A stretch of 64,000 nt of DNA from an uncultured Planctomycetia bacterium (GTDB lineage: Bacteria > Omnitrophota > Gorgyraeia > Tantalellales > Tantalellaceae). Position 1 is the stretch's first letter. Every line of letters starts with the position of its first letter. The stretch covers positions 4,320 to 68,319 of the forward strand of contig CAZGOG010000003.1 of assembly GCA_964527555.1 (NCBI GenBank), in the 5' to 3' direction. The notes beneath the pieces are model-generated. The model searched no databases. It worked only from the letters and a program-made list of their open reading frames with translations, and was not told the origin of the DNA. The position numbers and the translations under genes were made by a program. Positions 24,794 to 44,308 of this stretch are shown piece after piece.

Positions 24794-24795
24794 AA

Positions 24796-25656: not shown

Positions 25657-26357
25657 ATAATACCATAGTTGTTATTCCTTCTTATAACGAGGCCAGGACG
25701 ATCGGCGGCATCGTACGGGATATCGTGAAGATGGGCATGAGCGTTCTTGTCGTTGATGACGGTTCGGTCGACAGCACCGAACGGGCCGCTCTTGATAATG
25801 GTGCGATGGTGCTGCGCAATCGGCATAACCTCGGTAAGGGGCTTTCTATCAGGGAGGGGATAAAGTATGTCCTGGCGAAGACTAATTTCGAATGGATGAT
25901 AACGATGGACGCCGACGGACAGCACCATACGGAGGATATACCCGTTTTAATGAAGGCCGCAGAAGAAGATGATGTGGATATTGTGATAGGCAACCGCATG
26001 CTCGAGACGAAAACCATGCCTTCTTTGCGTTACTGGACCAACAGATTCACCTCGTGGGTGGTATCGCAAATATGCAGACAGGACATACCGGATACACAAT
26101 GCGGTTACAGGCTTTTCAGGGTAAGCACTTTGAAAAATATGGAACTTATCTCGGAGAAGTTCGATATCGAATCGGAGATGCTTATCGAAGCGGCGGAGAA
26201 AAGATTTAAGATGAAAGCCGTGCCGATACAGACCATATACGGCAGAGAAGTTTCCGCGATCAAGCCTATACGGGATACTATTAAATTTTTCACCCTTGTC
26301 TTAAGGTATCATTTTAAAGTAAATGGAATACGCCGAACAAAGAATCCGCATGGTTGA
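25641..26357 (+). CDS. family 2 glycosyltransferase (polyprenyl-phosphate sugar transferase-like)
   Basis: The VVIPSYNEA, VVDDGSVD, MDADGQH motifs (GT-A DxD). The start is taken at the second Met of the track ORF. Confidence 0.8.
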   Translation: MGSRIDNTIVVIPSYNEARTIGGIVRDIVKMGMSVLVVDDGSVDSTERAALDNGAMVLRNRHNLGKGLSIREGIKYVLAKTNFEWMITMDADGQHHTEDIPVLMKAAEEDDVDIVIGNRMLETKTMPSLRYWTNRFTSWVVSQICRQDIPDTQCGYRLFRVSTLKNMELISEKFDIESEMLIEAAEKRFKMKAVPIQTIYGREVSAIKPIRDTIKFFTLVLRYHFKVNGIRRTKNPHG

Positions 26358-26976
26358 GGACCAGCTTGCCCGCCGGGGCATACGCGCCCCTGGGGTCCTG
26401 GAGGCGTTTAGAAAAGTGCCGAGGCACCATTTTGTGCCGGCCGCTTTCAGGGACGCTTCGTACGCGGATCATCCCCTGCCTATAGGGCACGGTCAGACTA
26501 TCTCCCAGCCGTATATCGTTGCGCTTATGACCGAAAGTCTTCGCCTTAAAGGGGGCGAAAAGGTCCTAGAGGTCGGCACCGGAAGCGGATACCAGGCCGC
26601 TATTCTTGCGGAGATCTGCCGCGAGGTTTGTACCATAGAGAGGGAAGAGGCTCTTCTGCGGCAGGCGGAAAGACTTCTTTCAAGCGAAGGATACAAGAAC
26701 ATAAAGTTTGTTTCGGGTGACGGGACCAAAGGGTTTAGGGATGAAGCCCCTTATGATGGTATACTGGTGACCGCAGCCGCTCCCTTTGTGCCGGAGGCGC
26801 TTAAAGCGCAGCTTGCCGATGGCGGACGCATAGTGATTCCCGTCGGTTCGATATACTCCCAGGTTTTGGTGGCAGTCGAGAAAAAAGGGAAAGACTTCAC
26901 CCAGGAAGATATCTGCGGGTGCGTCTTTGTGCCACTGATCGGTGAAGACGGCTGGAAAGAAAGACCCGAGTGGTAG
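26350..26976 (+). CDS. pcm: protein-L-isoaspartate O-methyltransferase
   Basis: The HHFVP..., TISQPYIVALMTE and VLEVGTGSGYQAA (SAM-binding) motifs. Confidence 0.9.
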   Translation: MVEDQLARRGIRAPGVLEAFRKVPRHHFVPAAFRDASYADHPLPIGHGQTISQPYIVALMTESLRLKGGEKVLEVGTGSGYQAAILAEICREVCTIEREEALLRQAERLLSSEGYKNIKFVSGDGTKGFRDEAPYDGILVTAAAPFVPEALKAQLADGGRIVIPVGSIYSQVLVAVEKKGKDFTQEDICGCVFVPLIGEDGWKERPEW

Positions 26977-26992
26977 ATGGAGGAGACCAAAA

Positions 26993-27490
26993 GTGCTTGA
27001 AGCTCTTACAGATTCGCTTGTCAAGTTCAACAAAGAAGTCGCGGTAGTGGTCCTTGCGGCTCTGCCGGTTTCGGAGCTGAGGGGTTCTATCCCTCTGGGC
27101 CTTGCGATGAATTTTACCCCCCTGAAGACGTATTTATTGTCCTTTGTCGGGAACATGCTGCCGGTCGTGCCGCTGCTTTTTTTCCTTCAGCCCATATCCG
27201 AGAAACTCAGGCACATCCCGGTATTTGAAAGGTTTTTCAACTGGCTTTTTGAAAGAACAAGAAAAAAAGCAAGCCTCATAGAAAAATTCGAAGCTTTTGG
27301 TCTTATTTTGTTTGTGGCCATACCTTTGCCGGTTACAGGGGCATGGACCGGTTGTGTGGCAGCCACGCTTTTCAAAATAAGGTTCAGATACGCTTTTTTA
27401 GCCATCATGCTGGGTGTTATAATCGCCGGAGTGGTGGTTATGGCGCTGAGCCTTGCGGGCAAGGAGTTGTTCACGCTGGCCCGTTCGTAG
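26993..27490 (+). CDS. small membrane protein, COG2426-like (putative small multidrug export protein family)
   Basis: 166 aa hydrophobic. LPVSELRGSIPLGLAM and GNMLPVVPLLF motifs. GTG start after GGAGGAGA. Confidence 0.5.
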   Translation: MLEALTDSLVKFNKEVAVVVLAALPVSELRGSIPLGLAMNFTPLKTYLLSFVGNMLPVVPLLFFLQPISEKLRHIPVFERFFNWLFERTRKKASLIEKFEAFGLILFVAIPLPVTGAWTGCVAATLFKIRFRYAFLAIMLGVIIAGVVVMALSLAGKELFTLARS

Positions 27491-28068: not shown

Positions 28069-28084
28069 GTTTACGATACGATTA

Positions 28085-28383
28085 TACAGGTGATCGCAGG
28101 ATTTTAAAAGGGAAGTTCCGTGAAAACCGGACGCGGTCCCGCCGCTGTGATTTCGCCTTTCTTTAGAGGAAGAAAGCTCTTTTAGCGGGGAAGGCCACTG
28201 TTCTACCTTGTGGAATGGGAAGGCAGCTAGAAAAGAGCATGCGAGAAAGCCAGAAGACCTGCCTGTATGCTAAAGATGCCCGCTTGAGCTCGAGGAAGCT
28301 CGGGAAGGTAACTTTTCTTATCAGGGTACAAAAAACGGTGAACCCTTGATGTCCGAATTAGGATATCAGGGGTTTTTTATTTT
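28085..28383 (+). promoter_or_regulatory. cobalamin (AdoCbl) riboswitch with terminator-type expression platform
   Basis: The conserved core AAAAGGGAAGTTCCGTGAAAACCGG...GGTCCCGCCGCTGTGA and the B12 box GGCCACTG...TGGGAAGGC. Downstream hairpin CCCTTGAT...ATCAGGGG plus TTTTTTATTTT immediately precedes the btuB-like Shine-Dalgarno. Confidence 0.8.
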
Positions 28384-28395
28384 CAGGAGAGAGTA

Positions 28396-30414
28396 GTGCC
28401 GAAAAAGATAAAATTATCATTGATTTCAACGATCCTGGTTCTTATGAGCTCACAGGTGTTTTCTCTGGAAGAGGAAGTGGTCAGACTTGAGCCCATCGTA
28501 ATCACGCCGACCAGGGGCAGCGATGAAATATCGGACGTGACTAAGAGTGTGACAGTTATTTCCCGGGAGGATCTCAAGCGTACGAAAGCGGACTATCTGC
28601 CTGAACTTATCCGCTCTAGAAGCGGTATTACGGTTACAGATTATCTGGGTAACCCCAAAGGTACGCTGGTTGATATAAGGGGTTTCGGGGAGACGAGCAC
28701 TTCCAACGTCCTTGTTCTTGTTGACGGCAGAAGGACCAATCAGGTGGATCTATCCGGGACGGATTGGTCTCAGATAGACCTGGACTCAGTCGAGAGGATA
28801 GAGATAGTACGCGGGCCGGCAACCGTTCTTTACGGGGATAATGCTGCAGCCGGTGTCATCAATATAATCACAAAGAGAGGCGAGCTGGAGGAGCCGACCA
28901 TATCTCTGGGCGGTACGCTTGGAAGCTATGACTATAAGAAAGGATATGTCAGCGCGTCGGGTAGCACAAGCTTTATGGATTATTTCCTGAGTTATTCCCA
29001 TCATGAAACGGACGGCTACAGGGCCAATAACGCTTACTGGGCAAATGATTATTTTAGCGGCTTTACCATGCATCCGACGGCGACTTTCACCATAGACCTT
29101 TCTTGCGGGTATCACCGTGACAGGTACGGAATGCCCGGAGCGTTATATCCGGCCGAGATCGCCGTCGTAGGCAGGAGGGGAACGACGCATCCGGATGACA
29201 AAGCTTCGACGGCGGATTTTTTCTTTAAGATAAACCCGCAGATAGAGTTCGCCTTAGCCGGGAGCGACGTGACGCTATCGTTTTTCAATTCATACAGGGT
29301 CCGCCGCAGTAACGGTCTTAATGTATCTATGTGGGGAGAATTTGAGACCGTGCATTACATAAGGACGTACGAGCTTAAACCCAAGATCGAAGTCACGACA
29401 GAGTTAGATGACATCGACAACACTTTGATCATGGGGCTGGACTTTTTTAACGCGCGTGATGCCGTCCTGAGCGGTAACCGCATAGGGAATATGCAGGATA
29501 AGACCGATATCATAAAGAACGCTTTGGGGGTCTATGCCCATGACAGTATCAAGCTATGGGACAGGGTTTTGTTTAACGGCGGGGTAAGGGGGGAATGGGC
29601 AGACTATGATTTTAACCAGGAGAAGCTTCTCGCCAATCATGACTCCAAAAAAATCAGGATAGTTGCCTATAATACCGGGTGCGGGTACAAGTATAATGAG
29701 ATGTCCGAAGTATATTTTGACTTTTCCAGTTCCTTCCGTCTGCCTAATACGGAAGAATACTATCAGAATAAAGGCGTTTTTTGGGGCGTTCCCTACGGGG
29801 GGCTTAACACCGATCTTAAGTACCAGCAGTCCACCGGTTATGAGTTAGGGGCCAGGGACAATACCTTTGATTGGCTGAGTTTCGCTTCCAGCGTATTCCT
29901 TATGGATGTAAAGAATGAGATATATTTTGACCCGTCGACGTTTAAAAACTCCAACTATCTTCCTGAGGTGCGCCACTATGGTCTTGAGCTTGAAGGCAGA
30001 TTCGATTTCTTTGAGGGTAAGCTGAAACCCTTTGCGGCATGGACGCTTCAGAAGTCTTACTTCAGAGGCGGCACTTATGACGGCAATTGCGTTCCTTTTG
30101 TGCCCGGGAACACGGTTTCGGCAGGGGTGACGGTTACGCCGCTTGAGAACTTTAATGCCACGCTTCTAGCCAGTTACGTCGGCAGGAGATACCTTATAAG
30201 CGACGGGAAGAACATCGCCCCGGAACTGAAGGATTATACCGTTTTTGATATAGTAGTAGATTACACTTATAAAGGGATAAGCGTGTTCGCTGCGGTGAAG
30301 AACCTGTTTGCCAAGGAATATTACGCTTACGGCGTAAGCAACGCTTTCGGGGTCGAGACTTTTTATCCCGCCAGTGAGAGAAGGTTCGAGTTCGGGTTTT
30401 CATGCCGATTTTAA
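28396..30414 (+). CDS. TonB-dependent outer-membrane receptor (BtuB-like cobalamin receptor)
   Basis: Signal peptide, TonB box-like EEVVRLEPIVITPTR, plug domain (IEIVRGPATVLYGDNAAAGVINI), 22-strand barrel-length sequence ending in F. Preceded by the B12 riboswitch. Confidence 0.85.
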   Translation: MPKKIKLSLISTILVLMSSQVFSLEEEVVRLEPIVITPTRGSDEISDVTKSVTVISREDLKRTKADYLPELIRSRSGITVTDYLGNPKGTLVDIRGFGETSTSNVLVLVDGRRTNQVDLSGTDWSQIDLDSVERIEIVRGPATVLYGDNAAAGVINIITKRGELEEPTISLGGTLGSYDYKKGYVSASGSTSFMDYFLSYSHHETDGYRANNAYWANDYFSGFTMHPTATFTIDLSCGYHRDRYGMPGALYPAEIAVVGRRGTTHPDDKASTADFFFKINPQIEFALAGSDVTLSFFNSYRVRRSNGLNVSMWGEFETVHYIRTYELKPKIEVTTELDDIDNTLIMGLDFFNARDAVLSGNRIGNMQDKTDIIKNALGVYAHDSIKLWDRVLFNGGVRGEWADYDFNQEKLLANHDSKKIRIVAYNTGCGYKYNEMSEVYFDFSSSFRLPNTEEYYQNKGVFWGVPYGGLNTDLKYQQSTGYELGARDNTFDWLSFASSVFLMDVKNEIYFDPSTFKNSNYLPEVRHYGLELEGRFDFFEGKLKPFAAWTLQKSYFRGGTYDGNCVPFVPGNTVSAGVTVTPLENFNATLLASYVGRRYLISDGKNIAPELKDYTVFDIVVDYTYKGISVFAAVKNLFAKEYYAYGVSNAFGVETFYPASERRFEFGFSCRF

Positions 30415-30486: not shown

Positions 30487-31053
30487 ATGTTCAGCGACCC
30501 AATATTTAGAGCGGCTGTCGGGGTATCACTTCTGGCGCATTTAGCATTCGTGGTGCCGCATGGTTTTTTCTTTCCCAGGGGAAAAACTACCCCCAAAGAC
30601 CCGGCAAATTTGAATTATATAGTGATAGAGGAAGCCCGGTTGACTGAGGACAATGAGGTTTACACGCCGGAGGCTTCCAAGGAGGAAAAAGCAGAAGAGT
30701 ACGTAGAAAAAGAAGTGGAAACCTTTTCAGGTGAAGTCAAGACCGAAAAGGCGACCGAGATAAAAAGACAGGAAGCTTTTCTTAAGTATTACAATTTGAT
30801 CAGGGAGAAGATACGAGCGGAGATATACTCTAGCTTTAAGAGGCGCGAGACAGGGGAAGTGCGAGTCACATTTGTTTTGAGTTCAGACGGACATCTTCTA
30901 AGTATAGCAGAGGCAGTTTCAGGCAGCTCCTCTGTGCTCAAAAAGAAAGCCATCGAAGGGGTAAAAGAGGCGCAGCCCTTCCCTCCGTTTCCGAAAGAAA
31001 TGAGAAGTGCTCCCATAAATTTTTCTCTTACTATCAGGTTTAATTCGAAGTGA
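30487..31053 (+). CDS. tonB: energy transducer TonB
   Basis: N-terminal TM helix, a charged/proline-poor linker, and a C-terminal TonB-C domain (VRVTFVLSSDGHLLSIAEAVSGSS...FPPFP). Confidence 0.75.
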   Translation: MFSDPIFRAAVGVSLLAHLAFVVPHGFFFPRGKTTPKDPANLNYIVIEEARLTEDNEVYTPEASKEEKAEEYVEKEVETFSGEVKTEKATEIKRQEAFLKYYNLIREKIRAEIYSSFKRRETGEVRVTFVLSSDGHLLSIAEAVSGSSSVLKKKAIEGVKEAQPFPPFPKEMRSAPINFSLTIRFNSK

Positions 31054-31090: not shown

Positions 31091-32200
31091 ATGAGCCAGT
31101 TTATAATAGAGCTTGCGAAAGAGACTGACGATCCAGGCATACGGGACCTCCTGAGTAATATCCCGATGGAGGGGGATATTGAGATGTCTTTCCACAGGGA
31201 CCCGAGTGTTTTTTACAGCCTGGGCGTGCAGGGTAAATTCAATCAGATAGTAGTCGCCAGAGACACTAAGCGCGGCAGAATAGTCGCCAGCCAGACCAGG
31301 TCCATAAAACCCGTATACATTAACGGCGAAGTTAAAAACCTTGGCTATACGAGTTACCTCAGGATACTTCCTGAGTACAGGCGCTCGACACTGCTTGGCA
31401 GAGGGCTTAAATATTTTAAAACTTTAAACGAAGACGGCAGGGTTTCGGTATATGTAACCTCTATTTTCGATAGCAATGAATACGCAAAGAAATGGATGGT
31501 ATCCGGCAAAGCCGGCATGCCTATAACTTATGAGCTGGGGGCGTATCACACTTTTTCTATTATTCCTTTCCGCAGGAAGAAAGAGATAAAAACCGATCTC
31601 AAGGTTGAGAGAGGTTCGAGGGAAAACTTAGGAGGGATCCTCGAGTGTCTGGCGCGTTATGGCCGTGAAAAACAGTTCTACCCGTATTACACGCGGGAGG
31701 ATTTTATTCCGGGCGCCACTTACTCGAGAGATTTTAACGTAGAGGATTTTTATATTGCTTTAAAGGGCGACAAAATAGTGGGTGTAATCGCCAAATGGGA
31801 CCAGAACGGGTATAAACAGACAGTCATCAACAGATATAACGGGAAAATGAGACGCTTAAAGCCTCTGGTAAACTTTGGGTCTAGACTGTTGGGATACCCC
31901 CCCATGCCGGAAGCCGGAGACTATTTGAGGTTCTTTCAGGTAAGTTTTATTGCCATTATGGATAACGACGTAGATGTTTTCCGCATCCTGCTCCGCAGGC
32001 TATATAACGATAATATCGGCGGGGCGCACACTACTTTTCTGGTCGGACTTCATTCGAAGGATCCTTTAATAAAAGCACTTGAAGAATATCACCATTTCAA
32101 ATATGATAGTCGGATATATCTTTTCGGCTGGGAGGAAAACAGGAAAGATCTTGATGATGTTGATTCGAGGATTCCATACTTTGAAATAGGAAGATTATGA
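31091..32200 (+). CDS. GNAT-fold-like acyltransferase of unknown specificity (two-domain, 369 aa)
   Basis: Segments resembling GNAT motif A (YRRSTLLGRGLKYF) and a second alpha/beta half. No confident family assignment possible by eye. Translationally coupled to the next gene. Confidence 0.45.
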   Translation: MSQFIIELAKETDDPGIRDLLSNIPMEGDIEMSFHRDPSVFYSLGVQGKFNQIVVARDTKRGRIVASQTRSIKPVYINGEVKNLGYTSYLRILPEYRRSTLLGRGLKYFKTLNEDGRVSVYVTSIFDSNEYAKKWMVSGKAGMPITYELGAYHTFSIIPFRRKKEIKTDLKVERGSRENLGGILECLARYGREKQFYPYYTREDFIPGATYSRDFNVEDFYIALKGDKIVGVIAKWDQNGYKQTVINRYNGKMRRLKPLVNFGSRLLGYPPMPEAGDYLRFFQVSFIAIMDNDVDVFRILLRRLYNDNIGGAHTTFLVGLHSKDPLIKALEEYHHFKYDSRIYLFGWEENRKDLDDVDSRIPYFEIGRL

Positions 32201-32201
32201 C

Positions 32202-32933
32202 ATGGAAACAAAAGGCACCGTTTTAAACACAAATGAACTTTCAGCTGGCCAGAAGGGCAGGATGTTCGAGCTTATGTGCATGTTCTTTAACGGCGTGGAG
32301 AAGGATAAATTCAGCAGGGATTTAAGCGAAAAAAAGTGGGTTGTCGTTCTCCAGGATACGGACTCAGGCGAGATATTCGGCTTTTCTACCCAGACTATCC
32401 TGGAAGAGAGGATCGATAGCACACCCGTTAAAGTGATCTTTTCCGGTGACACGATAGTTCATAGGGACTATCGCTTCGGTGAAAAGGGTCTTATGAAAGC
32501 ATGGGCAGAGCTGGTTTCTTCGCTCATGATAAAGTACCAGGGGGTAAAATTCTACTGGTATCTGATATCCATGGGGTACAGGACCTACCGCTTTCTTCCT
32601 GTCTTTTTCAAGGAATTTTATCCCCGCTATGATAAAGAGACTCCGGAATTCGAGAAGAAGGTCATTGACGCGTTCGCATCCAGTAAGTATCCCGATGAAT
32701 ACGATAGTAAGATGGGGATAATACACACCAGATCAAACGGTTATTTAAAACCGGGAGTGGGGGATATAACAGAGGAGCTTTTAAAAGATCAGCATATAGA
32801 GTTTTTTGTCAAGAGGAACCCGCTTCATGCTGAGGGGGAAGAGCTGGCCTGTATCGCTGAGCTGGTCAAGGATAACCTTAATCCGGTAGCCTTCAGGATG
32901 CTTTCCAAAGATAATCCACTACGTTTCTTATAA
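32202..32933 (+). CDS. GNAT-like (N-acyltransferase-like) protein, 243 aa
   Basis: HRDYRFGEKGLMKAW resembles GNAT motif A (R-x-x-G-x-G). Only a 1-nt gap from the previous stop and a 2-nt gap to the next gene. Confidence 0.45.
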   Translation: METKGTVLNTNELSAGQKGRMFELMCMFFNGVEKDKFSRDLSEKKWVVVLQDTDSGEIFGFSTQTILEERIDSTPVKVIFSGDTIVHRDYRFGEKGLMKAWAELVSSLMIKYQGVKFYWYLISMGYRTYRFLPVFFKEFYPRYDKETPEFEKKVIDAFASSKYPDEYDSKMGIIHTRSNGYLKPGVGDITEELLKDQHIEFFVKRNPLHAEGEELACIAELVKDNLNPVAFRMLSKDNPLRFL

Positions 32934-32935
32934 TC

Positions 32936-34645
32936 ATGAGATTGATGTCTTTAGCGATGAATATTTTGCTTTTAGCGGTGCGCCTGGGCGGGTATCTTTC
33001 TTTTAACCGGGCAAGGCGCAGTGTGCAAAAAACCCAGGAGAAATTGCTAAACAGAATAATTCTCAAGAATAAAGAGAGCCGTTTCGGCCGGGAACATGAC
33101 TTCTCCTCGATAGAGAGTGTTTCCAGTTACAGATCTAAAGTGCCTGTTTCAACCTTTGATTCGTATCTGGCCGATGTCGATTCTATTTTAAACGGGGAGA
33201 AAAATGTCCTCACGAAAGAGCCCGTCCTATTCCTGCAGCCCTCAAGCGGCTCGACAGCCGAGAGCAAGTATATTCCTTTCACAAAAAGCTTGAAGAACGA
33301 GTTTTTAAGAGGCATCAGACCCTGGTTTTTCGACCTTTTCGTTAAACGGAGGCGACTTCTAGGGGGCAAGGCATACTGGTCTATAAGCCCGGCAGGAAGT
33401 AAACTGAAGAAGGCGGGTGTAAAGCCTGCCATCGGCTTTGATGACAGCGAGTATTTCAGCCTGGCGGAGAAGACCCTGCTGAAGCTTCTAAGCGCAGTGC
33501 CTTTGGAAATACAAGAGGTACAAGACTTCCGGGATTTTAAATACGTGAGTTTACTGTTTCTCCTGAAGGAGAAGAGTCTCACCTTTATATCAGTCTGGAA
33601 TCCGACTTTCCTGACCATTCTACTGGAGGATCTTCTCTCCTGGAGCGATAATCTCGTAAGCGATATAGGGGATGGCAGGATCACCGGCACTTTAAATATC
33701 GATGAAGATTTAAAAAAGAAGCTTACTCGCCATTTGAAAAAAGACGCAAAAAGAGCGGAGGAGCTCCGCGGGATTTTCAGGCAAGCCAAAGGTCCTTCTA
33801 TTTCCGGTGGTAAGGCGCTGCACGGGAGGATATGGCCGCACCTGGCTGTAATCAGCTGCTGGGCTGACGGGAATGCTTCCCGCCACATAAAAGAGATAAA
33901 AGAGATATTCCCGAACGTGGAAATACAGCCCAAAGGCCTCTTGGCGACTGAGGCTTTTGTCTCTTTCCCCGTGGTGGGGGATGAAGGATCGGCCCTTGCG
34001 GTTAATTCCCATTTTTTTGAATTCATTGAAATCGAAAAAGAGGGGGGAACTACCGGCGGGGACACAAAGTTAGCACACGAACTCGAGGCGAAGAGGAGCT
34101 ACTCGCCTGTAATAACGACGGGAGGGGGCCTCTACCGTTACCACTTGCAGGATATCATTGAGGTCCTAAAGGTTAAAAACGGCCTTGCTTTTATCAGGTT
34201 TATCGGAAAGAGCGATAATGTCTCGGATCTGATGGGTGAGAAACTAAACGCGTTACATGTAGAAAGCGTCCTCGCTGAAGTGATCGGGGAACATGATCTT
34301 GAGCCTGAATTTTTCATGATGGCACCGGAGAAGGACGAGAGAGGCCGTTATTACTACACCTTTTTTATAAAGTCTCCGGAAAAAAGCGATGAATGCCTGC
34401 TCGCGGCGGCAGGGGAAATAGAGAAGAAGCTTTCCGGGAACTTTCATTACGGGTACTCGAGGAAGCTGGACCAGCTAGGGCGTGTAAGAATTTTTGTCAT
34501 CGAAGAAGATTCAGCTTCCTCGAGGGATAAATATTTGATGCGCCAGGTGCGGGAAGGCAGAAAAGCGGGCGATATCAAGCCCATGATTTTGGAGAGGAGC
34601 ACCGGATGGTCAGAAGTTTTTAAAGGCAGATTTATCGGCGTTTAA
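32936..34645 (+). CDS. GH3-family adenylate-forming acyl-acid amido synthetase homolog
   Basis: 569 aa. SSGSTAESKYIP (GH3/ANL phosphate-binding motif), GLYRYHLQDIIEV (GH3 hinge motif), and overall GH3 length. Confidence 0.8.
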   Translation: MRLMSLAMNILLLAVRLGGYLSFNRARRSVQKTQEKLLNRIILKNKESRFGREHDFSSIESVSSYRSKVPVSTFDSYLADVDSILNGEKNVLTKEPVLFLQPSSGSTAESKYIPFTKSLKNEFLRGIRPWFFDLFVKRRRLLGGKAYWSISPAGSKLKKAGVKPAIGFDDSEYFSLAEKTLLKLLSAVPLEIQEVQDFRDFKYVSLLFLLKEKSLTFISVWNPTFLTILLEDLLSWSDNLVSDIGDGRITGTLNIDEDLKKKLTRHLKKDAKRAEELRGIFRQAKGPSISGGKALHGRIWPHLAVISCWADGNASRHIKEIKEIFPNVEIQPKGLLATEAFVSFPVVGDEGSALAVNSHFFEFIEIEKEGGTTGGDTKLAHELEAKRSYSPVITTGGGLYRYHLQDIIEVLKVKNGLAFIRFIGKSDNVSDLMGEKLNALHVESVLAEVIGEHDLEPEFFMMAPEKDERGRYYYTFFIKSPEKSDECLLAAAGEIEKKLSGNFHYGYSRKLDQLGRVRIFVIEEDSASSRDKYLMRQVREGRKAGDIKPMILERSTGWSEVFKGRFIGV

Positions 34646-34730: not shown

Positions 34731-35186
34731 ATGACAGAAAAAATTAATAGCGCCCGTTTCAGCGAGGAGATGGCAAAGATGGTACCGCGCATGCTGAGGG
34801 AGTTTACGCGCAAACAAGAGAGCATCCTTTCCAAAGGGAACATAGCTCTTCCTCATGTAGTGATCCTTGATTGTCTGAGAGAAATGGGATCTTTAACCAT
34901 GGGGGAGCTTGCCAGGATACTCAACCTCACAATGAGCGCAGTGACTGTTATAATCGATAAAATGGTTGAACTGGGACTTGTCAAGAGAGAGCGTTCCAAG
35001 CAGGACAGAAGAATCGTAAATGTGATGCTTTTAAAAAAAGGCAGGGAAACAGCGGAAAAAGTCGATGAAGCACGAAAGGTAATGACAAGTGAGATCTATT
35101 CTGTTCTTTCGGGCGAGGAGAGGGTAGAGTATTTGAGGCTGATAAGAAAAGTTTATGAAAGTCTAGGGGTGAGAGATGAAAAGTAG
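34731..35186 (+). CDS. MarR-family transcriptional regulator
   Basis: 151 aa winged helix. MGELARILNLTMSAVTVIIDKMVELGLVKRERSKQDRR is the classic MarR wHTH. Confidence 0.85.
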   Translation: MTEKINSARFSEEMAKMVPRMLREFTRKQESILSKGNIALPHVVILDCLREMGSLTMGELARILNLTMSAVTVIIDKMVELGLVKRERSKQDRRIVNVMLLKKGRETAEKVDEARKVMTSEIYSVLSGEERVEYLRLIRKVYESLGVRDEK

Positions 35187-36672
35187 AACTTTTAAAACTG
35201 CAATTTTGGCGGGCCTGGTGGCGCTCTTTGGTTTGGCTTACATTTATCCTTCGGCGGCGGAAGAGGAGAATAAGGATATCAGGGTCAGGAAGCTCTCTTT
35301 AGACGACTGTTTAAAAGACGCCCTTATAAACAGTTTTGAGGTGAGGCTGGCAAAACTTGATTATATGGTGGCAGAGACTGATGTACTCTATTCTCAAGCC
35401 GTATTTGATACTTTGGCGTTCGGAAATGTAAGTTACAGGGAAGACAAAAGCCAGCAGGAGTATACCTTTATCGGGGACGATAATCAGATAAATATGTATG
35501 GTATAGGTTTTACGAAGGAGCTCCCCATAGGGACCGAGATCGGAGTTTCATGGCAGGACACAAGAAACTGGAATAATTTCAGCAACCCCTTTTTTATCAC
35601 AAAAAACCCTTATCATGAAGCTGTTTTGACCTTTGAGGCAAAGCAGCCCGTAGGAAAGAACTTTTTCGGATATATAGACCGTAATACCGTTAACGTCACA
35701 AAGATGGCTGTCGAGAATGCGGATCTGGGGACGAAGGAAAGGATAGAGATCTTTATTGCAGAGGTTGCAAAGGCCTACTGGGCGGTGGTTGCCGCTAAGA
35801 AAAGGCTCGGTACCACTGAAGATATTTTAAAAAAAGCCCGGGCCCTTCATGAGTCGAACTCGAAAAATTATGACCTGGGGGCTATAGAAAAAGCGGACTT
35901 CCTGGCTTCAGAGGCCAACTTGATCTTAAGTGAAGCGGATGTGATATTCGCTGTTAACAGTTACCGCGAAAATGAAGAAAATCTTAAGCTTTTGCTCAAT
36001 ATGGAAGAAGACATACGCATTTATCCGGCAGAAGAGTTTAGCCTGGAAAAGTCGGAGTATGACGTCGCGACCTGTCTGCGCATTGCTTTTGAGAATAGGT
36101 GGGATTACAAGATAAGGAAGAGGGATATTGATATCAGGAATCTGGAAATAAAGATAAAGGATAACCAGATGTGGCCTGAGATAGATCTTACCGGCAGCTT
36201 CGCTATGAACGGTTTGGAGCAAAGTTTTACAAAAGCCGCGGGCAAAACAGTTGTTGCTGATAATACGAATTACGTTGTCGGAATAGAGGTATCGTTCCCC
36301 GTTGAAAACAGCGCGGCCCGCAGTGAGTTCAAAAAAGCCAAGTATGAGAAAGAGATAGCTCTTGTAAACCTTAAGGAGACGGAAAGAACAATTATAACCG
36401 AAGTCGTGAATGCTTTTAGGAATCTTCGGGCGGCTGAGACCAACGCCGTCAGCGTTTCTAGAGCCGCGAAACTTCAGGCTGAAAAGCTCGAGGAAGAGGA
36501 GAAGCGTTATAAATATGGAAGATCGATGACCAAGGTGCTTATAGACTACCAGAATGATTTATTGCGGGCTGATTTAAGGGAAACACAGGCTTTGCTCAAC
36601 ATGGAAGTCGCTAAAATCGATCTCGAAAAAGCGATGAATATCATACTTGATAAATATAAGGGGCTGTTATGA
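35176..36672 (+). CDS. TolC-family outer membrane efflux protein
   Basis: Signal peptide and two OEP repeats (LSLDDCLKDALINSFEVRLAKLD..., LLNMEVAKIDLEKAMN). Confidence 0.85.
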   Translation: MKSRTFKTAILAGLVALFGLAYIYPSAAEEENKDIRVRKLSLDDCLKDALINSFEVRLAKLDYMVAETDVLYSQAVFDTLAFGNVSYREDKSQQEYTFIGDDNQINMYGIGFTKELPIGTEIGVSWQDTRNWNNFSNPFFITKNPYHEAVLTFEAKQPVGKNFFGYIDRNTVNVTKMAVENADLGTKERIEIFIAEVAKAYWAVVAAKKRLGTTEDILKKARALHESNSKNYDLGAIEKADFLASEANLILSEADVIFAVNSYRENEENLKLLLNMEEDIRIYPAEEFSLEKSEYDVATCLRIAFENRWDYKIRKRDIDIRNLEIKIKDNQMWPEIDLTGSFAMNGLEQSFTKAAGKTVVADNTNYVVGIEVSFPVENSAARSEFKKAKYEKEIALVNLKETERTIITEVVNAFRNLRAAETNAVSVSRAAKLQAEKLEEEEKRYKYGRSMTKVLIDYQNDLLRADLRETQALLNMEVAKIDLEKAMNIILDKYKGLL

Positions 36673-39600
36673 GCATACCGCGGTTTAGCGTAAACAACTC
36701 ACTCTTTGTCAATCTTATCTCCGTTATCATCCTGATAATAGGCGGGATCACTGTTTTTGGTTTGAACCGCGAGGTGTTCCCGAATGTGGCGTTTGATATG
36801 GTGACCGTTAGCACCGTGTATCCGGGGGCGACACCTGAGGATATCGAGAAACTCATAACCGTTCCCATAGAGAAAGAGATAAAAGAAGTTGACGGTATCA
36901 AGGAGGTAGTCTCTTCATCCGCAGTGGGCGTATCTCTTGTCCAGATTAAGATAGATCCCGATGAATCGAATAAGCAAAAGGTGGTAAGAGACATACAAAG
37001 CGCCGTAGACAGGGTAAAAGACCTGCCGAAGGATATTTACGAGGACCCTGTCGTGACAGAGATCACGAGTAAAAATTATCCGATTATAGAGGTGTCTCTC
37101 TCCGGGGATATGACGGAGAAAAAACTCCAGGAATATGCCGATGCGCTTGAGGATGAGCTTGAAGATATAGAAGGCGTTGCGCGCATACAGAAAAGCGGAT
37201 ACAGGGACAAGGAGATGCAGATCCTCGTCGACGAGGAAAAACTCAAGGAATTCTATGTCTCTATTGACGAAATCGCCATGGCTCTTGCCCTGCGTAATGT
37301 CAGTATTCCCGCCGGCAGGCTTAATACGGCTACTACCGAATACAGCATAAGGACCAGCGGAGAGTTCGAGACCAAAGAAGAGGTAGAAAACGTCATCATC
37401 AGGGCCAATGATGCAGGAAACTGGCTGAGGATCAAGGATGTGGCGCGCGTCGAGGACACGTTTAAAGATGAAGATATAATAAATAAAACCTTGGGGACCC
37501 GGTCGATTAATCTGGTGGTCATGAAAAAAGAATCCGGCGATGCCATAAGCATGGTACGGGACGTAAGAGGAGTCTGTGCCAGGTTTCTTGAGAAGATACC
37601 CGGCAACCTTGAAATATCTTTCGTTAATGACTATGCGTTTTATGCCAACAGACGTCTCAGGGTCTTAAGGAACAATGCCTGGTTCGGTATGATACTGGTT
37701 ATAGCATGCATGCTTATATTCCTGCAGAAGCGCATAGCTTTTTTGACCGTTCTGGGTATTCCTATCGCGTTTTTCTGTACGTTCATCGTTATGGATATGA
37801 TGGGGATAACAGTGAACTTGATCAGCATGTTCGGTCTTGTCATAGTTCTCGGTATGCTCGTTGATGACGGTATAATCGTAGCTGAGAACGTTTACCGTTA
37901 TATTGAGGATGGCATGCCGCCCCGCCAGGCGGCTGTTAAGGGTACGGAAGAAGTGATGGGGGCGGTCGTCTCAGCTGTCCTGACGACGGTCGCTGCGTTT
38001 ACACCTTTACTTTTCATGTCGGGCCTTATCGGTAAATTCGTCAGGAACATACCCACCGTCGTTATTATTGCGCTCATGGCTTCGCTTGGAGAAGCGCTTA
38101 TTATACTTCCGAGTCATTTAGCTGACTTTGTGCGGGTAAAATACGATGCAGCAGGGAAACCCGTGGGATTGGCCCGGGACATGCCTTGGTTCCGCAGGCT
38201 AGTTTCGATATATACCAGGGTAGTGAGGGCCGCTATCAGAAGGAAATATAAGGTCATCATAGGGATCTCGGCGGTTCTGGCTATTTGCGGTTTTGTGGCT
38301 TTTTACGTCATAAAGTTCATTCTTTTTCCTTATTCGGGGATAAATTTTTTCTTTATAAGAGCCGAAGCCCCGATAGGCACCCCCCTGGAGAAGACAAACG
38401 AACTTATCGCGCCGATAGAAGACATCATCTCGCAGCTTCCCGGTGACGAACTTGATACGTACGTGACGATGATAGGCAATATACAGGAAGAGAGGCAGGA
38501 TCCCTTTGCGCGTCAGGCGAGTAATCTGGCGCAGGTCACTGTGTATCTGACGCAGGAGCAGGACCGTAAACGCAAGGTAGAGGAGATAGTAGCGGAGGTG
38601 CGCGAGAAGGCAAAAGACATAAAAGGTTTTGATGACATGAGGTTCGATCTCCCACAGACGGGGCCGCCGGTCGGTAAGGCAGTTGAAGCCAGGATCAGGG
38701 GGGAAGACTTTGAGACGCTTGACAAAATAGCTTTCGAATACATGGATTATATGAAGACGATAGACGGAACGACGGATATCACATGGGACCATAAACCCGG
38801 AAAAGAAGAAATACGCGTGAAAGTCGACCATAACAGAGCGACTCTGGCGGGCTTGTCCATAGGCCAGATCGCCAAGACTATTAGAGGCGTTTTCCAGGGC
38901 GAGATCGCGACGAAAATAAAACCGGTAAAAGCTGAGGAAGAGACGGATGTCACAATAAGGTTTGAAGAAGCGAAAGACGCTTCGACTCTCGATATTTTCG
39001 ACAAGATACTTATTGCCAACAGGTTCGGCAATCTCATACCGCTTAACAAGGTGGCGACAATAGAGAAGGTGCCGGGGGCCACAACGATACATCATCTGGA
39101 CGGCAAACGGGTCGTTACAGCTTCAAGCAACGTGGACACCAAGAAAACCACGTCACTCAAAGTCAACAGCATGCTGGAGAAAAAATTCAGTGATCTTTCG
39201 GACAGATACATCAGTTATTCCGTTAAATACGGGGGGGAGCAGGAAGAGACTCTGGATTCACTGAAAAGCTTATTAAAGGCGTTCTTTTTTGCGTTTTTGG
39301 TCGTATATATGATACTGGCGTCCTTTTTTAAGTCGCTTGTGCAACCCTTTGTTGTCATGCTGGCGATTCCTTTCGGGCTGATCGGTGTCGTTCTGGCTTT
39401 TTTACTTCACGGCCTGCCCCTGTCTTTTATGGCGATTATGGGTGTTGTGGGGCTTAACGGCGTTGTTGTCAACGACTCCATTGTCTTGGTGGATTTCATA
39501 AACAAACTCAGAAACGAAGGGATGAGCAGGGCCGAATCCATAGTCAAGGCCGGCCAGATGAGGATACGCCCGGTTATACTGACGACAGTCACTACAGCAG

Positions 39601-39818
39601 GCGGGTTAAGCACGGTAGCCTACGGTCTGGGGGGCAAAGACCCGTTTCTTGTTCCCATGGCTGTTGCGCTTTGCTGGGGGCTGGTGTTTGCGACGGCGCT
39701 TACCCTTATCGTGGTTCCGTGCGTGTATTCCATCATAGACGATATTTCGATCAAGATAACGCATCACACAAGCATGATAAGAAGCGAAAAACTCAAAGAT
39801 GAGGAAGTGCGTAGATGA
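36669..39818 (+). CDS. RND superfamily efflux transporter (AcrB/CzcA-like), 1049 aa
   Basis: 12 predicted TM helices with two large periplasmic loops. N-terminal RFSVNNSLFVNLISVIILIIGG and conserved TM4/TM10 regions. Confidence 0.9.
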   Translation: MSIPRFSVNNSLFVNLISVIILIIGGITVFGLNREVFPNVAFDMVTVSTVYPGATPEDIEKLITVPIEKEIKEVDGIKEVVSSSAVGVSLVQIKIDPDESNKQKVVRDIQSAVDRVKDLPKDIYEDPVVTEITSKNYPIIEVSLSGDMTEKKLQEYADALEDELEDIEGVARIQKSGYRDKEMQILVDEEKLKEFYVSIDEIAMALALRNVSIPAGRLNTATTEYSIRTSGEFETKEEVENVIIRANDAGNWLRIKDVARVEDTFKDEDIINKTLGTRSINLVVMKKESGDAISMVRDVRGVCARFLEKIPGNLEISFVNDYAFYANRRLRVLRNNAWFGMILVIACMLIFLQKRIAFLTVLGIPIAFFCTFIVMDMMGITVNLISMFGLVIVLGMLVDDGIIVAENVYRYIEDGMPPRQAAVKGTEEVMGAVVSAVLTTVAAFTPLLFMSGLIGKFVRNIPTVVIIALMASLGEALIILPSHLADFVRVKYDAAGKPVGLARDMPWFRRLVSIYTRVVRAAIRRKYKVIIGISAVLAICGFVAFYVIKFILFPYSGINFFFIRAEAPIGTPLEKTNELIAPIEDIISQLPGDELDTYVTMIGNIQEERQDPFARQASNLAQVTVYLTQEQDRKRKVEEIVAEVREKAKDIKGFDDMRFDLPQTGPPVGKAVEARIRGEDFETLDKIAFEYMDYMKTIDGTTDITWDHKPGKEEIRVKVDHNRATLAGLSIGQIAKTIRGVFQGEIATKIKPVKAEEETDVTIRFEEAKDASTLDIFDKILIANRFGNLIPLNKVATIEKVPGATTIHHLDGKRVVTASSNVDTKKTTSLKVNSMLEKKFSDLSDRYISYSVKYGGEQEETLDSLKSLLKAFFFAFLVVYMILASFFKSLVQPFVVMLAIPFGLIGVVLAFLLHGLPLSFMAIMGVVGLNGVVVNDSIVLVDFINKLRNEGMSRAESIVKAGQMRIRPVILTTVTTAGGLSTVAYGLGGKDPFLVPMAVALCWGLVFATALTLIVVPCVYSIIDDISIKITHHTSMIRSEKLKDEEVRR

Positions 39819-42409
39819 AACACAGGATTCTTGTTAAAACGTTAGTTACTTTTTTATTTATTTGTTTGTCTTTCGTCTCTTTAGCTTCGGAGGAGTTCTT
39901 CGATTACCAGAAGAGCGTTCTGGATAACGGCGCAACTATAGTCTCTAAGTATGTGCCGGAATCTTCGCTGGTGACGGTACGCATGCGCGTTCTCTCGGGT
40001 CTTTCCAATGAAGGCGAATATGCGGGAAGCGGCATCTCGCATTTCCTCGAGCATCTTCTTTTTAAGGGAACCAGCGATAAAGGCGCGAAAGAGATACGCC
40101 AGGAAATAAAATCGATGGGAGGCATTGTCAACGGGGCTACCGGACTTGATTCAGCGGAGTATTATATGACTGTTCCTAACGAGAATTTTACTGAAGCGTT
40201 GGACCTCCTGGTGGATATGGTTACACAGCCGGTATTCACTTCGGAGGAGTTTGAGATAGAGAGGGACGTGATACTTAAAGAGATTAAAATGCGCAGAGAT
40301 GACCCTATAACGCGACGAATGCAGCTTCTTTTCGCAGAGGCGTATCGCCAAAATGTATACAAACACCCCATAATAGGCTATGAAAAGGTCTTTAAAACCC
40401 TTGCAAAGGAAGATATCCTCGCTTACCATGCTGCGGCTTATACTCCGGATAGAATGGTCTTAGCGGTAGTCGGAGGCATAGCCGGTGATGAGGCGATCGA
40501 TGCTGCCAGAGAGAAACTTTCCGGCTTAGAGAGGGGCAGGATCTGGCAGGTAGATATAGCCTCCGAGCCGAGACAGATCAGCGAGGCGAAGTCCAGTTTC
40601 CCCGCGGATATCACTTTGGGGTACCTGGCCTTGGGGTTTCATACTACAAGTCTCTATTCGCCTGATTTATATCCTGCCGATGTTATGGATATACTTTTAG
40701 GGGGAGGGAATGATTCGCGACTCTATAAAAGGCTGGTAAAGGATAAACAGCTTCTCTATACAATATCGAGCGTGAACTACACGCCCAAATATCCGGGGCT
40801 GTTCATTATTACCGGTATCGGTGACCCCGATAAACTTGAAGAGGCCCGCAAAGAGGTATTTGCCGTTATTGAAGACCTTAAAGACGGTAATGTGCGGGAC
40901 GAGGAGATAGAGAGGGCAAAGAATATGGTGATATCGGAATATCTCCATTCGCATGAGAGGATAGACAGTATCGCCAGCACCATGACGAATTCCGAGATGC
41001 TTACGGGAGACGCCGCGTTTTTCAAGAAGTATGTGGATGAGATAAAAAAAGTCGATAAGGAAAGAGTTAAAGAATCCGCCTTGAAATACTTAAAAAGAGA
41101 TAACTCGACCACGGTTTTTCTTATGCCGCGGGATTTCGGGGAAAAAGCCGAAAAGGGCGAAAAGATGAAGACGGCCGAGGGAGAAGTAAAGGAAGCTGTG
41201 CTTGGGAACGGTCTAAAGGTGATCGTCAAAAGAAGGGAAGAACTTCCGCTTGTCTCCGTCAGTTTCGCGACCGGCGGCGGTCTCAGGGCGGAGACTGAAG
41301 AAGATAACGGTATATCCAATCTGACGGCCTCGCTTTTATTGAAGGGCACGAAAAAGCGTTCCGAAGCGGAAATAATCCCGGCTATTGAGAGGATGGGCGG
41401 TGAAATTTCCACTTTCAGCGGCATGAACTCACTGGGTCTGGCCATGGACGTACTCAGCAAGGACCTGAACGAGGCATTGGTCATTTTTGAGGATGTCCTG
41501 AGGAACGCTACATTCCCGGAAGAAGAGATCTTAAAACAGAAAAAGAGAATAATGGCCGCGATAAAAGAACAGGAGACCGATATCTTCGAGAACGGTATGA
41601 TTCATCTTCGCCGGCTTATTTACGGCGATCACCCCTATTCGATGAGGACTTCCGGTGAAGTCGAAACAGTCTCCTCCATATCCCGCAGGGATATACTGGA
41701 TTTTTTCGGGGAACGTTTTGTCCCGGAAGGTTCGGTGATAACCGTTGCCGGGGATGTGGATATAGACGAGACTATAAACACCCTCACAAAACAGTTTTCT
41801 TCCTGGCGGGGCAGACCCTCACCCCTTAAAGAGAAGGAAGTGCCGCCATTAGGGGAGAGCAGGAAAAAAGATATTTTTATGAAGAAAGAACAGGCGCTCT
41901 TTCTTGTGGGGCTGGAAGGTGTGACGGTAACTGATGAGAGGAGATTCGCGTTAGATGTCATCAGCTCTCTCCTGTCGGGATCGGACGGCCTTTTATTCTA
42001 TGCGGCGCGGGAAGAAAAAGGTCTTGCATACGCTTCAGGTGCGGCATCTATACCCGCTGTAGAGACGGGATATTTTATGCTATACGTGGCTACGACTGAA
42101 GAAAACCTTAAAGAGGCGGGAAAAACCGTTCTGGATGCTATCAGCAAACTTACCAGCGGCCAGATCGGGGAAGAGGAGATCGCTTCTTCCAGGAGGCAGC
42201 TTATTTCGCAGCATGCATATTCGCTTGAGACCAACAGCGCTTTATCGATGACCATGGCACTGGACGAGCTTTACGGACTCGGGTTTTTGGAGTATGAGGA
42301 GTATCCTGAAAAGATAAACGCTGTGACTAAAGACGATATAGTCGAATGCGCCAAAGAAGTTTTCGATATGGATAGAAGCGCGACTGTCATCGTCCACTCT
42401 GAACAATAA
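39815..42409 (+). CDS. secreted double-domain M16 (insulinase/pitrilysin) zinc peptidase, 864 aa
   Basis: Signal peptide. First half has the inverted zincin motif HFLEHLLFKGT (HxxEH). Second half (from ~KEAVLGNGLKV) is a second M16 unit lacking HxxEH. Confidence 0.85.
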   Translation: MKHRILVKTLVTFLFICLSFVSLASEEFFDYQKSVLDNGATIVSKYVPESSLVTVRMRVLSGLSNEGEYAGSGISHFLEHLLFKGTSDKGAKEIRQEIKSMGGIVNGATGLDSAEYYMTVPNENFTEALDLLVDMVTQPVFTSEEFEIERDVILKEIKMRRDDPITRRMQLLFAEAYRQNVYKHPIIGYEKVFKTLAKEDILAYHAAAYTPDRMVLAVVGGIAGDEAIDAAREKLSGLERGRIWQVDIASEPRQISEAKSSFPADITLGYLALGFHTTSLYSPDLYPADVMDILLGGGNDSRLYKRLVKDKQLLYTISSVNYTPKYPGLFIITGIGDPDKLEEARKEVFAVIEDLKDGNVRDEEIERAKNMVISEYLHSHERIDSIASTMTNSEMLTGDAAFFKKYVDEIKKVDKERVKESALKYLKRDNSTTVFLMPRDFGEKAEKGEKMKTAEGEVKEAVLGNGLKVIVKRREELPLVSVSFATGGGLRAETEEDNGISNLTASLLLKGTKKRSEAEIIPAIERMGGEISTFSGMNSLGLAMDVLSKDLNEALVIFEDVLRNATFPEEEILKQKKRIMAAIKEQETDIFENGMIHLRRLIYGDHPYSMRTSGEVETVSSISRRDILDFFGERFVPEGSVITVAGDVDIDETINTLTKQFSSWRGRPSPLKEKEVPPLGESRKKDIFMKKEQALFLVGLEGVTVTDERRFALDVISSLLSGSDGLLFYAAREEKGLAYASGAASIPAVETGYFMLYVATTEENLKEAGKTVLDAISKLTSGQIGEEEIASSRRQLISQHAYSLETNSALSMTMALDELYGLGFLEYEEYPEKINAVTKDDIVECAKEVFDMDRSATVIVHSEQ

Positions 42410-43487: not shown

Positions 43488-43488
43488 T

Positions 43489-44286: not shown

Positions 44287-44308
44287 AGGCCTCGCCAGGA
44301 AAGCGTGC

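Follow-up and report, generated by a model that had tools for sequence, protein, structure and literature searches.

Organization of the three-gene locus

Three adjoining genes, here designated ORF1, ORF2 and GH3, were analyzed within a 64-kb stretch of contig CAZGOG010000003.1 from an uncultured bacterium of the Omnitrophota (this stretch, at its full length of 64,000 nucleotides, being referred to as the window). An earlier note on this DNA had placed here three reading frames separated by gaps of 1 and 2 nt, and these were confirmed exactly, with the same coordinates and all on the + strand, both in the list of open reading frames (ORFs) and in the junctions themselves. ORF1 (31091-32200, +) specifies a 369-aa protein of an undescribed family with a predicted tandem-GNAT acyltransferase fold, a likeness to N-myristoyltransferase (NMT) and a near-invariant C-terminal Leu. 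ORF2 (32202-32933, +) specifies a 243-aa protein, also of an undescribed family, predicted to consist of one GNAT domain followed by a C-terminal extension of ~100 aa, and GH3 (32936-34645, +) specifies an ATP-dependent acyl-acid amido synthetase of 569 aa.

The ORF1/ORF2 junction reads TTA TGA C ATG (gap of 1 nt), with the sequence GGAAG positioned 8-12 nt 5' of the ORF2 ATG, and the ORF2/GH3 junction reads TTA TAA TC ATG AGA TTG ATG (gap of 2 nt). Public gene calls on identical contigs assign the start of GH3 to the second ATG, three codons downstream (32945, specifying 566 aa), in which case the second gap becomes 11 nt instead of 2 nt. Relatives of the three proteins are publicly annotated as 'hypothetical protein' and 'GH3 auxin-responsive promoter family protein', and as nothing more.

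Conservation and distribution of the module

A scan with an ORF2 profile, covering one genome per species, retrieved 494 encoding stretches, and the synteny counts given here are based on 80 loci fetched from these, homologs at each locus being scored by tblastn and the triad being counted when all of its members were located within 10 kb. Homologs of ORF1, ORF2 and GH3 are found together at 62 of the 80 species-level loci, and at 57 of the 80 they are present on the same strand in the order ORF1>ORF2>GH3, typically separated by -4 to +30 nt and with identities to the window proteins of 25-47% (ORF1), 38-54% (ORF2) and 33-48% (GH3). This collinearity of the three genes is far beyond chance, and the synteny upon which the earlier operon proposal depended is strongly conserved; that the trio represents a real functional module is held here with very high confidence.

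The module is present in ~500 species-level genomes, and its hosts are distributed over more than 10 phyla, among them Planctomycetota, Omnitrophota, Chloroflexota, Bacillota, Nitrospirota, Desulfobacterota, Acidobacteriota, Sericytochromatia, Saganbacteria and Nealsonbacteria, with Woesearchaeota and Nanoarchaeota among the archaeal hosts; the cultured carriers are Peptoclostridium litorale DSM 5388 and Brevibacillus sp. H7. ORF2 is the most widespread member, being represented by 2272 cluster representatives in an exhaustive profile search. The module, together with genes for B12-binding radical SAM enzymes, was also encountered in metagenome-assembled genomes (MAGs) of DPANN archaea (Woesearchaeota/Nanoarchaeota; loci L058, L061, L062 and L079) and in reduced genomes of the candidate phyla radiation (CPR) type (L020, Nealsonbacteria; L014, Saganbacteria). 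At two of the archaeal loci (L061 and L062) an archaeal-type threonyl-tRNA synthetase gene lies beside the module, which argues against mis-binning.

Toxin-antitoxin genes, integrases and reverse transcriptase genes surround some of the clusters, which fits horizontal spread. At L090 (6108-20025) and L091 (13379-16967) the cluster is located amid genes for phage-type integrases, a group II intron/retron-type reverse transcriptase, HEPN/nucleotidyltransferase and Fic proteins, an arrangement which suggests that the module is carried on mobile islands at these two loci. The sequencing run from which L090 derives contains the Peptoclostridium litorale DSM 5388 protein.

Two of the 2272 ORF2 representatives, from a library clustered at 50% identity, are natural fusions of ORF2 with GH3 (P0242 of 726 aa and P0262 of 788 aa), in both of which the ORF2-type GNAT is N-terminal and the GH3 part C-terminal. 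At seven loci ORF2 occurs without ORF1 and GH3, and in five of these seven (the planctomycete loci L040, L050, L052, L072 and L081) it adjoins a gene for a short, 444-aa AMP-binding (ANL) enzyme, so that GH3 looks to have been replaced there by another adenylating enzyme. Because ORF2 is paired with a GH3 or with an AMP-binding enzyme in both arrangements, it is functionally tied to a carboxylate-adenylating enzyme.

The GH3 enzyme

Judged by its sequence, the third gene is unambiguously that of a GH3-family adenylating amide synthetase, as the earlier note had recognized. Within the PF03321 family set (PF03321, PF23571 and PF23572) the N-terminal Pfam domain is matched with 172.5 bits (cut-off 23.6; E 1.6e-50) and the central GH3_M domain with 54 bits (cut-off 23.6; E 1.8e-14). 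The C-terminal domain is aligned over model positions 4-114 of 119 and, at 23.0 bits, falls just short of its cut-off (23.6), and PF23572 is carried by many close relatives of the window protein. Both GH3 motifs that had been quoted for it, SSGSTAESKYIP and GLYRYHLQDII, are present.

JAR1 is matched over residues 23-525 (E 8e-13, 51 bits), and other plant GH3 structures are matched as well. With reference to the three nucleotide-binding motifs defined for JAR1 (SSGTSQGRPK, YGSSE and GLYRYRLGD; PMC12493201), motif I is conserved (SSGST..K, SSGSTAESKY being paired with SSGTSQGRPK), as is motif III (GLYRYHLQD paired with GLYRYRLGD), whereas in motif II, LLATE versus YGSSE, only T/S-E is kept. The window GH3 has motifs I and III and apparently also the three-domain architecture in common with the plant GH3s (JAR1, GH3.5, GH3.6, GH3.8 and GH3.12/PBS3), from which it is set apart by the weakness of the JAR1 match, by motif II, by its location in a bacterial operon and by an additional hydrophobic segment at the N-terminus. 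This segment precedes the part that can be aligned to plant GH3s, is conserved among triad-type GH3s with the pattern FxxNxxWxLLC, and corresponds in the window to positions 32936-33001 (residues 1-22); it may act as a membrane-association element.

OlsH is, to our knowledge, the only bacterial GH3 with known function. The window GH3 scores 57 bits against the OlsH equivalog model (NCBIfam NF052613), for which the curated cut-off is 620, and is by this measure a distant paralog of this lyso-ornithine-lipid synthetase and no OlsH equivalog. Since OlsH was characterized in 2025 and generates N-acyl ornithine from a free fatty acid and ATP, without coenzyme A (CoA) or acyl carrier protein (ACP) (PMC12493201), the earlier statement that bacterial GH3 homologs are essentially uncharacterised no longer applies. 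OlsH showed no activity in living E. coli and required cell-free extracts supplied with ATP/Mg2+. The OlsH/OlsI ornithine-lipid pathway of Singulisphaera acidiphila (PMC12493201) resembles the triad in being a bacterial operon built around a GH3, in having neighbouring genes for further acyl transfer (a role that is predicted in the case of the triad) and in being found in planctomycetes among other phyla. The two systems differ in their partners, which are the alpha/beta-hydrolase O-acyltransferase OlsI and the methyltransferase OlsG in the former and two GNAT-fold proteins in the latter, and no alpha/beta-hydrolase or OlsG-like gene was found in the window operon; the usual extra partners of the triad are B12-binding radical SAM enzymes, unlike those of the OlsH/OlsI pathway.

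Predicted folds and family features of ORF1 and ORF2

The earlier note could name no family for the two upstream proteins from sequence alone, and neither of them had a match at E<=0.01 among Pfam and NCBIfam models or a match among PDB sequences; searches against Pfam, NCBIfam and PADLOC together with profile searches, extended to E<=10, yielded no usable family. The candidates that had been put forward for them, being FemAB or Acetyltransf_6 enzymes and N-acyl amino acid synthases, were not borne out by the corresponding hidden Markov models (HMMs): PF00765, PF13444, PF13480 and PF02388 matched none of the window proteins, none of 47 ORF2 relatives and none of 22 ORF1 relatives. PADLOC returned no match for ORF1, ORF2, GH3, a partner B12 radical SAM protein or the small membrane protein described below, and a reading of the locus as an anti-phage defence system is unsupported.

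Alignments of relatives were built for both proteins and then used for AlphaFold2 modelling, which produced confident models (predicted local distance difference test scores, pLDDT, of 93.4 and 93.6). The predicted fold of ORF1 is that of a GNAT duplicated in tandem, with NMT among the closest folds, and the predicted fold of ORF2 is that of a single GNAT with a C-terminal extension, resembling NatD, LasI and FeeM; the modelled folds of the upstream proteins also gave matches to glucosamine N-acetyltransferases, Eis and MshD. The earlier note had called both proteins GNAT-like on account of 'motif-A-like' segments, and these segments map to the place where beta4 joins alpha3 in the GNAT domains of the models. 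In a profile-profile comparison of ORF1 with ORF2 the beta2-beta4 regions, including both segments, are aligned (E 7.5e-5, probability 62%). The GNAT assignment is thus right at the level of the fold. The position of the canonical Q/RxxGxG/A loop (beta4-alpha3) is present, but its residues are not conserved, the consensus there being YRGGxLLARGY in the ORF1 family and YWGDxxLxxxWG in the ORF2 family. The window ORF1 matched no GNAT Pfam model at E<=1, and Acetyltransf_1 was weakly matched by 9 of its 22 relatives (best E 1.1e-5).

The modelled likeness of ORF1 to eukaryotic NMT is one of fold and not of family, no NMT Pfam model being matched at E<=1 among 22 members of the ORF1 family. In NMT the C-terminal carboxylate serves as the catalytic base (PMC7048800). 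All of the 22 aligned ORF1 relatives end at one fixed position with Leu, a C-terminal Leu is present in 57 of 62 ORF1 proteins that neighbour ORF2 across phyla (motif [LVI]E[LIV][GA]xL-stop), and the last nine residues of the ORF1 model have a mean pLDDT of 89; unlike those of ORF1, the C-termini of ORF2 proteins are free to vary. By analogy with NMT, ORF1 may use its C-terminal carboxylate as catalytic base.

The GNAT core of the ORF2 model resembles those of the acyl-ACP-dependent enzymes FeeM and LasI (with OlsB being listed as a functional analog), and NatD, an acetyl-CoA enzyme, scores as well as these two. ORF2 differs from FeeM and LasI in matching neither Autoind_synth nor Acetyltransf_5 nor any other HMM, in its unique C-terminal extension and in having invariant residues of its own (GFST, FSGDT, GYxTYRFLP and GxELxC).

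Partner genes at other loci

Neighbouring genes were clustered at 83 loci. The commonest partners are genes for B12-binding radical SAM proteins, which were found at 59 of these loci in 127 copies, usually as two to four genes directly upstream of ORF1. A gene for a small protein with four transmembrane segments (4-TM protein) is present at 17 of the 83 loci, and a pair of radical SAM genes, one SPASM-like and the other Tes-like (137 bits to the tetraether lipid synthase Tes), at 12 of the 83; radical SAM partners also gave weak matches to ApyD and to RiPP (peptide made on the ribosome and modified after its translation) C-methyltransferases. Loci of aerobic planctomycetes contain genes for Rieske, SnoaL-like, AurF, fatty-acid desaturase and PAP2 proteins, the desaturase being found at 12 loci and PAP2 at 10.

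In two MAGs, one from the Nitrospirota (the closest named relative) and one from the Omnitrophota, the B12 radical SAM/ORF1/ORF2 cluster is directly preceded by a gene for a fusion of MFS (LplT-like), PlsC and AMP-binding (Aas-like) domains of 1131-1139 aa (L007, 118-3513; L012, 1159-4578). At L091 a PlsC acyltransferase gene follows GH3. Taken as general partners, PlsC, Aas, DegT and AurF were rejected, each being present at one to three loci only. The accessory genes found elsewhere lean towards lipid substrates, each in a minority of loci.

In the 64-kb window itself no tblastn match at E<=1e-3 was obtained for the B12 radical SAM proteins, for the Tes-like and SPASM radical SAM proteins or for the 4-TM protein, and none for the desaturase, Rieske, SnoaL, PAP2 and AMP-binding accessory proteins. 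A search for a RiPP precursor gene, reaching 2.5 kb from the cluster, brought up no conserved small ORF in any of the locus groups.

Local context of the triad in the window

The triad of the window is preceded by a cobalamin riboswitch aptamer (28071-28280, +; RF00174, 90.5 bits against a gathering threshold of 31.5, E 1.4e-21, model positions 1-189 of 189), in which the B12 box AGCCAGAAGACCTGCC is visible. A terminator-like hairpin with a T-run (28340-28375, +), composed of a 15-bp stem followed by TTTATTTT, is separated by 20 nt from the GTG with which the next gene begins and is probably the expression platform of the riboswitch. This gene (28396-30414, +) specifies a BtuB-like TonB-dependent receptor with Plug and beta-barrel domains, whose best NCBIfam match is the TonB-dependent B12 receptor, below the cut-off of that model. 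It is followed by a gene for a TonB-family protein (30487-31053, +; TonB_C domain, 2e-09).

Between the end of the TonB gene and the start of ORF1 there are 37 nt without a hairpin or terminator, and the TonB gene is probably co-transcribed with the triad. Given the riboswitch upstream, the triad is therefore probably located on a B12-responsive transcript, and its position behind riboswitch, BtuB-like receptor and TonB would link its expression here to B12 status. An extended -10-like sequence, read from the DNA alone, is present before tonB and could give rise to separate transcription. None of these upstream features is a general one: a TonB-dependent receptor is found beside the triad only on contigs identical to the window and at no other locus, so that receptor and TonB were rejected as conserved partners, and the cobalamin riboswitch was rejected as a module feature, being absent at all 17 other loci searched. 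The riboswitch constitutes a second link to B12, independent of the B12-binding partners found elsewhere.

Downstream of GH3 lie genes for a MarR regulator, an outer membrane efflux protein (OEP), an RND pump and an M16 peptidase (34731-42409), which the earlier note had regarded as a dedicated regulator/efflux/peptidase operon of the pathway. This assignment was not upheld: these genes have their own promoter-like site and ribosome-binding site (RBS), no RND, OEP or M16 gene neighbours the triad at other loci, and MarR genes do so at only four or five, weakly; the four were accordingly rejected as part of the module. Within this operon the genes overlap start to stop (35176/35186, 36669/36672 and 39815/39818), the double M16 peptidase (864 aa) is apparently translationally coupled to the RND pump, and no recognisable periplasmic adaptor gene (of the MFP/HlyD type) lies between outer-membrane factor and pump.

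Proposed function and alternative explanations

We consider the trio to be a conserved, horizontally spread biosynthetic module which forms amide bonds on an amine-bearing substrate, its product most likely being an amino-lipid or a lipoamino acid located in the membrane or at the surface, and this reading as a whole stands evenly poised between being right and being wrong. An N-acyl or lipo-amino-acid product, which the earlier note had offered as an example, thus continues to be the best guess. That note did not contain the two to four B12-binding radical SAM partners found elsewhere, the cobalamin riboswitch, receptor and TonB upstream, or the resemblance of ORF1 to NMT. Under the proposed scheme, GH3 would use ATP to adenylate a carboxylic acid (most probably a lipid acid, such as a free fatty acid) and would transfer its acyl group onto an amine, the role that ornithine has for OlsH, or alternatively would hand the activated acyl group onward. 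ORF2 would then perform a second N-acyl transfer, or make or consume the substrate of GH3, and ORF1, as an NMT-like tandem GNAT, would N-acylate a further amine, possibly with its conserved C-terminal carboxylate as catalytic base. In most other genomes the product would be tailored by the two to four B12-binding radical SAM enzymes, to which anaerobes would add the Tes-like and SPASM radical SAM enzymes and aerobic planctomycetes the Rieske, AurF, desaturase and PAP2 enzymes. All of these steps are deduced from enzyme families: the data themselves show gene structure, folds, family memberships, synteny, fusions and the riboswitch, while the substrates, the sequence of steps, the lipid character of the product, catalysis by the C-terminus and co-transcription are inferred.

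Acyl-amide chemistry is assigned with moderate confidence and is favoured by the intact GH3 domains with motifs I and III, the OlsH precedent, the C-terminal Leu of ORF1 and the LasI/FeeM-like core predicted for ORF2. For the lipid nature of the product the balance is about even; in its favour are the Tes-like radical SAM protein, the desaturase, PAP2, the MFS-PlsC-AMP-binding fusion, the PlsC at L091, the 4-TM protein, the hydrophobic N-terminus of GH3 and the membrane-lipid genes present nearby in the window. Several observations weigh against the proposed reading. Most loci lack the lipid-related accessory genes, which number about 10-17 of 83, and the commonest partners, the B12-binding radical SAM proteins, would be just as typical in a pathway for a peptide or small molecule. 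These proteins are furthermore absent from the window, which implies that the local product may differ or be simpler, or that the partners are located elsewhere in the genome. The canonical Q/RxxGxG/A loop for the acyl-CoA pyrophosphate is not conserved in the ORF1 or the ORF2 family, and a pathway in need of B12 enzymes would be expected to behave in the opposite way to a transcript repressed by B12.

Two explanations of a different kind appear unlikely to a similar degree. The product of the locus could be a small molecule destined for secretion, for example a metallophore assembled by a logic like that of NIS (NRPS-independent siderophore) pathways or, as a variant, a corrinoid scavenger, which would be exported by RND and OEP and re-imported by receptor and TonB. 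The window layout, in which genes for GNAT acyltransferases and for an adenylating amide synthetase are combined with one for a TonB-dependent receptor, resembles NIS loci such as that of aerobactin (iucABCD-iutA), with receptor and TonB directly upstream, MarR, OEP and RND directly downstream, and the whole unit possibly under a nutrient-sensing riboswitch. Yet there is no enzyme of the IucA/IucC family and no hydroxylase; the receptor, which follows a cobalamin riboswitch and has a B12 receptor as its best match, is most simply BtuB; its association with the triad is unique to the window genome; receptor, TonB, RND, OEP and M16 are absent beside the triad at all other loci, 17 of which lack the riboswitch as well; and a siderophore- or corrinophore-like metabolite accordingly fits the local context only. 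The module could instead produce a RiPP or lipopeptide, the GNATs acylating a peptide amine, GH3 ligating an acid, radical SAM enzymes tailoring the peptide and the M16 peptidase removing a leader. NMT and NatD, which transfer acyl and acetyl groups to peptide N-termini, are among the best folds, B12-binding and SPASM radical SAM proteins are typical RiPP maturases (as the weak ApyD and RiPP C-methyltransferase matches recall), and an M16 peptidase is specified by the next operon. Against this stand the lack of a conserved small ORF within 2.5 kb at any locus group, the gaps of 1 and 2 nt which leave no room for a precursor gene among the core genes of the window, the M16 peptidase not being conserved with the triad, and the occurrence of the triad without any radical SAM gene here and at several planctomycete loci.

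Two further explanations are given still less weight, both being regarded as highly improbable. In corrinoid salvage or remodelling, GH3 would amidate a corrin side-chain carboxylate or add a linker, the GNATs would carry out modifications, and the product would feed the B12 radical SAM enzymes. This would account for both links to B12, namely the B12-binding-domain proteins that flank the triad at 59 of 83 loci and, in the window, a riboswitch of a class typically controlling B12 acquisition genes together with a BtuB-like receptor; but cob, cbi and btuFCD genes are not among the recurring neighbours of the triad, a tailoring role is the simpler explanation for B12-binding proteins that are full radical SAM enzymes, and no riboswitch was found at 17 other loci. 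The other explanation sees in ORF2 a regulatory GNAT, similar to Pat or AcuA, which acylates and switches off the adenylating enzyme and has no biosynthetic transfer activity. GNAT control of ANL enzymes through lysine acetylation is established biology, and ORF2 is always paired with an adenylating enzyme (GH3 or AMP-binding) and is sometimes fused to it. A covalent fusion of regulator and target in one polypeptide would be unusual, however, no sequence similarity to the Pat or AcuA families was found, and a pathway enzyme would better account for its being so strictly conserved together with ORF1 and the tailoring enzymes.

In its biosynthetic interpretation, the module is proposed to be a GH3-centred acyl-amide pathway which is related to, yet distinct from, that of OlsH. 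A more far-reaching version, which is put forward as tentative and on balance doubtful, is that the trio and the B12 radical SAM enzymes form a widespread mobile pathway, shared by bacteria and DPANN archaea, for undiscovered tailored (including methylated) N-acyl amino-lipids or lipoamino acids, containing a prokaryotic counterpart of NMT that uses its C-terminal carboxylate and being wired to B12 in the present genome. In the literature searched no description of the trio or of either GNAT family was found, the only relevant papers being those on OlsH. The module thus represents a second context for GH3 in bacteria besides OlsH, far more widely scattered, with two partner families that have no Pfam or NCBIfam model and with carriers (Omnitrophota, CPR bacteria and DPANN archaea among them) for which little is known of the biochemistry of lipids and envelope. 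As a three-gene unit with cultured carriers it offers a practical entry to a new acyl-amide or amino-lipid product, as well as to the substrates of many orphan B12 radical SAM enzymes, and it bears on whether an NMT-type mechanism with a C-terminal carboxylate base exists in prokaryotes.

Further features of the window

The surroundings of the triad are rich in membrane-lipid genes. Upstream (22494-27490) lie genes for an MGDG (monogalactosyldiacylglycerol) synthase, an LpxL-type lipid A acyltransferase, a GT2 glycosyltransferase and a methyltransferase, and downstream (42687-45289) genes for a Memo-like (AmmeMemoRadiSam B) protein, a patatin-like phospholipase and an LPG_synthase_TM protein (MprF-type membrane domain). 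Gene-strand bias is very strong throughout the window (1-64000), all long non-shadow ORFs being located on the + strand and GC skew being positive in 32 of 32 two-kb windows.

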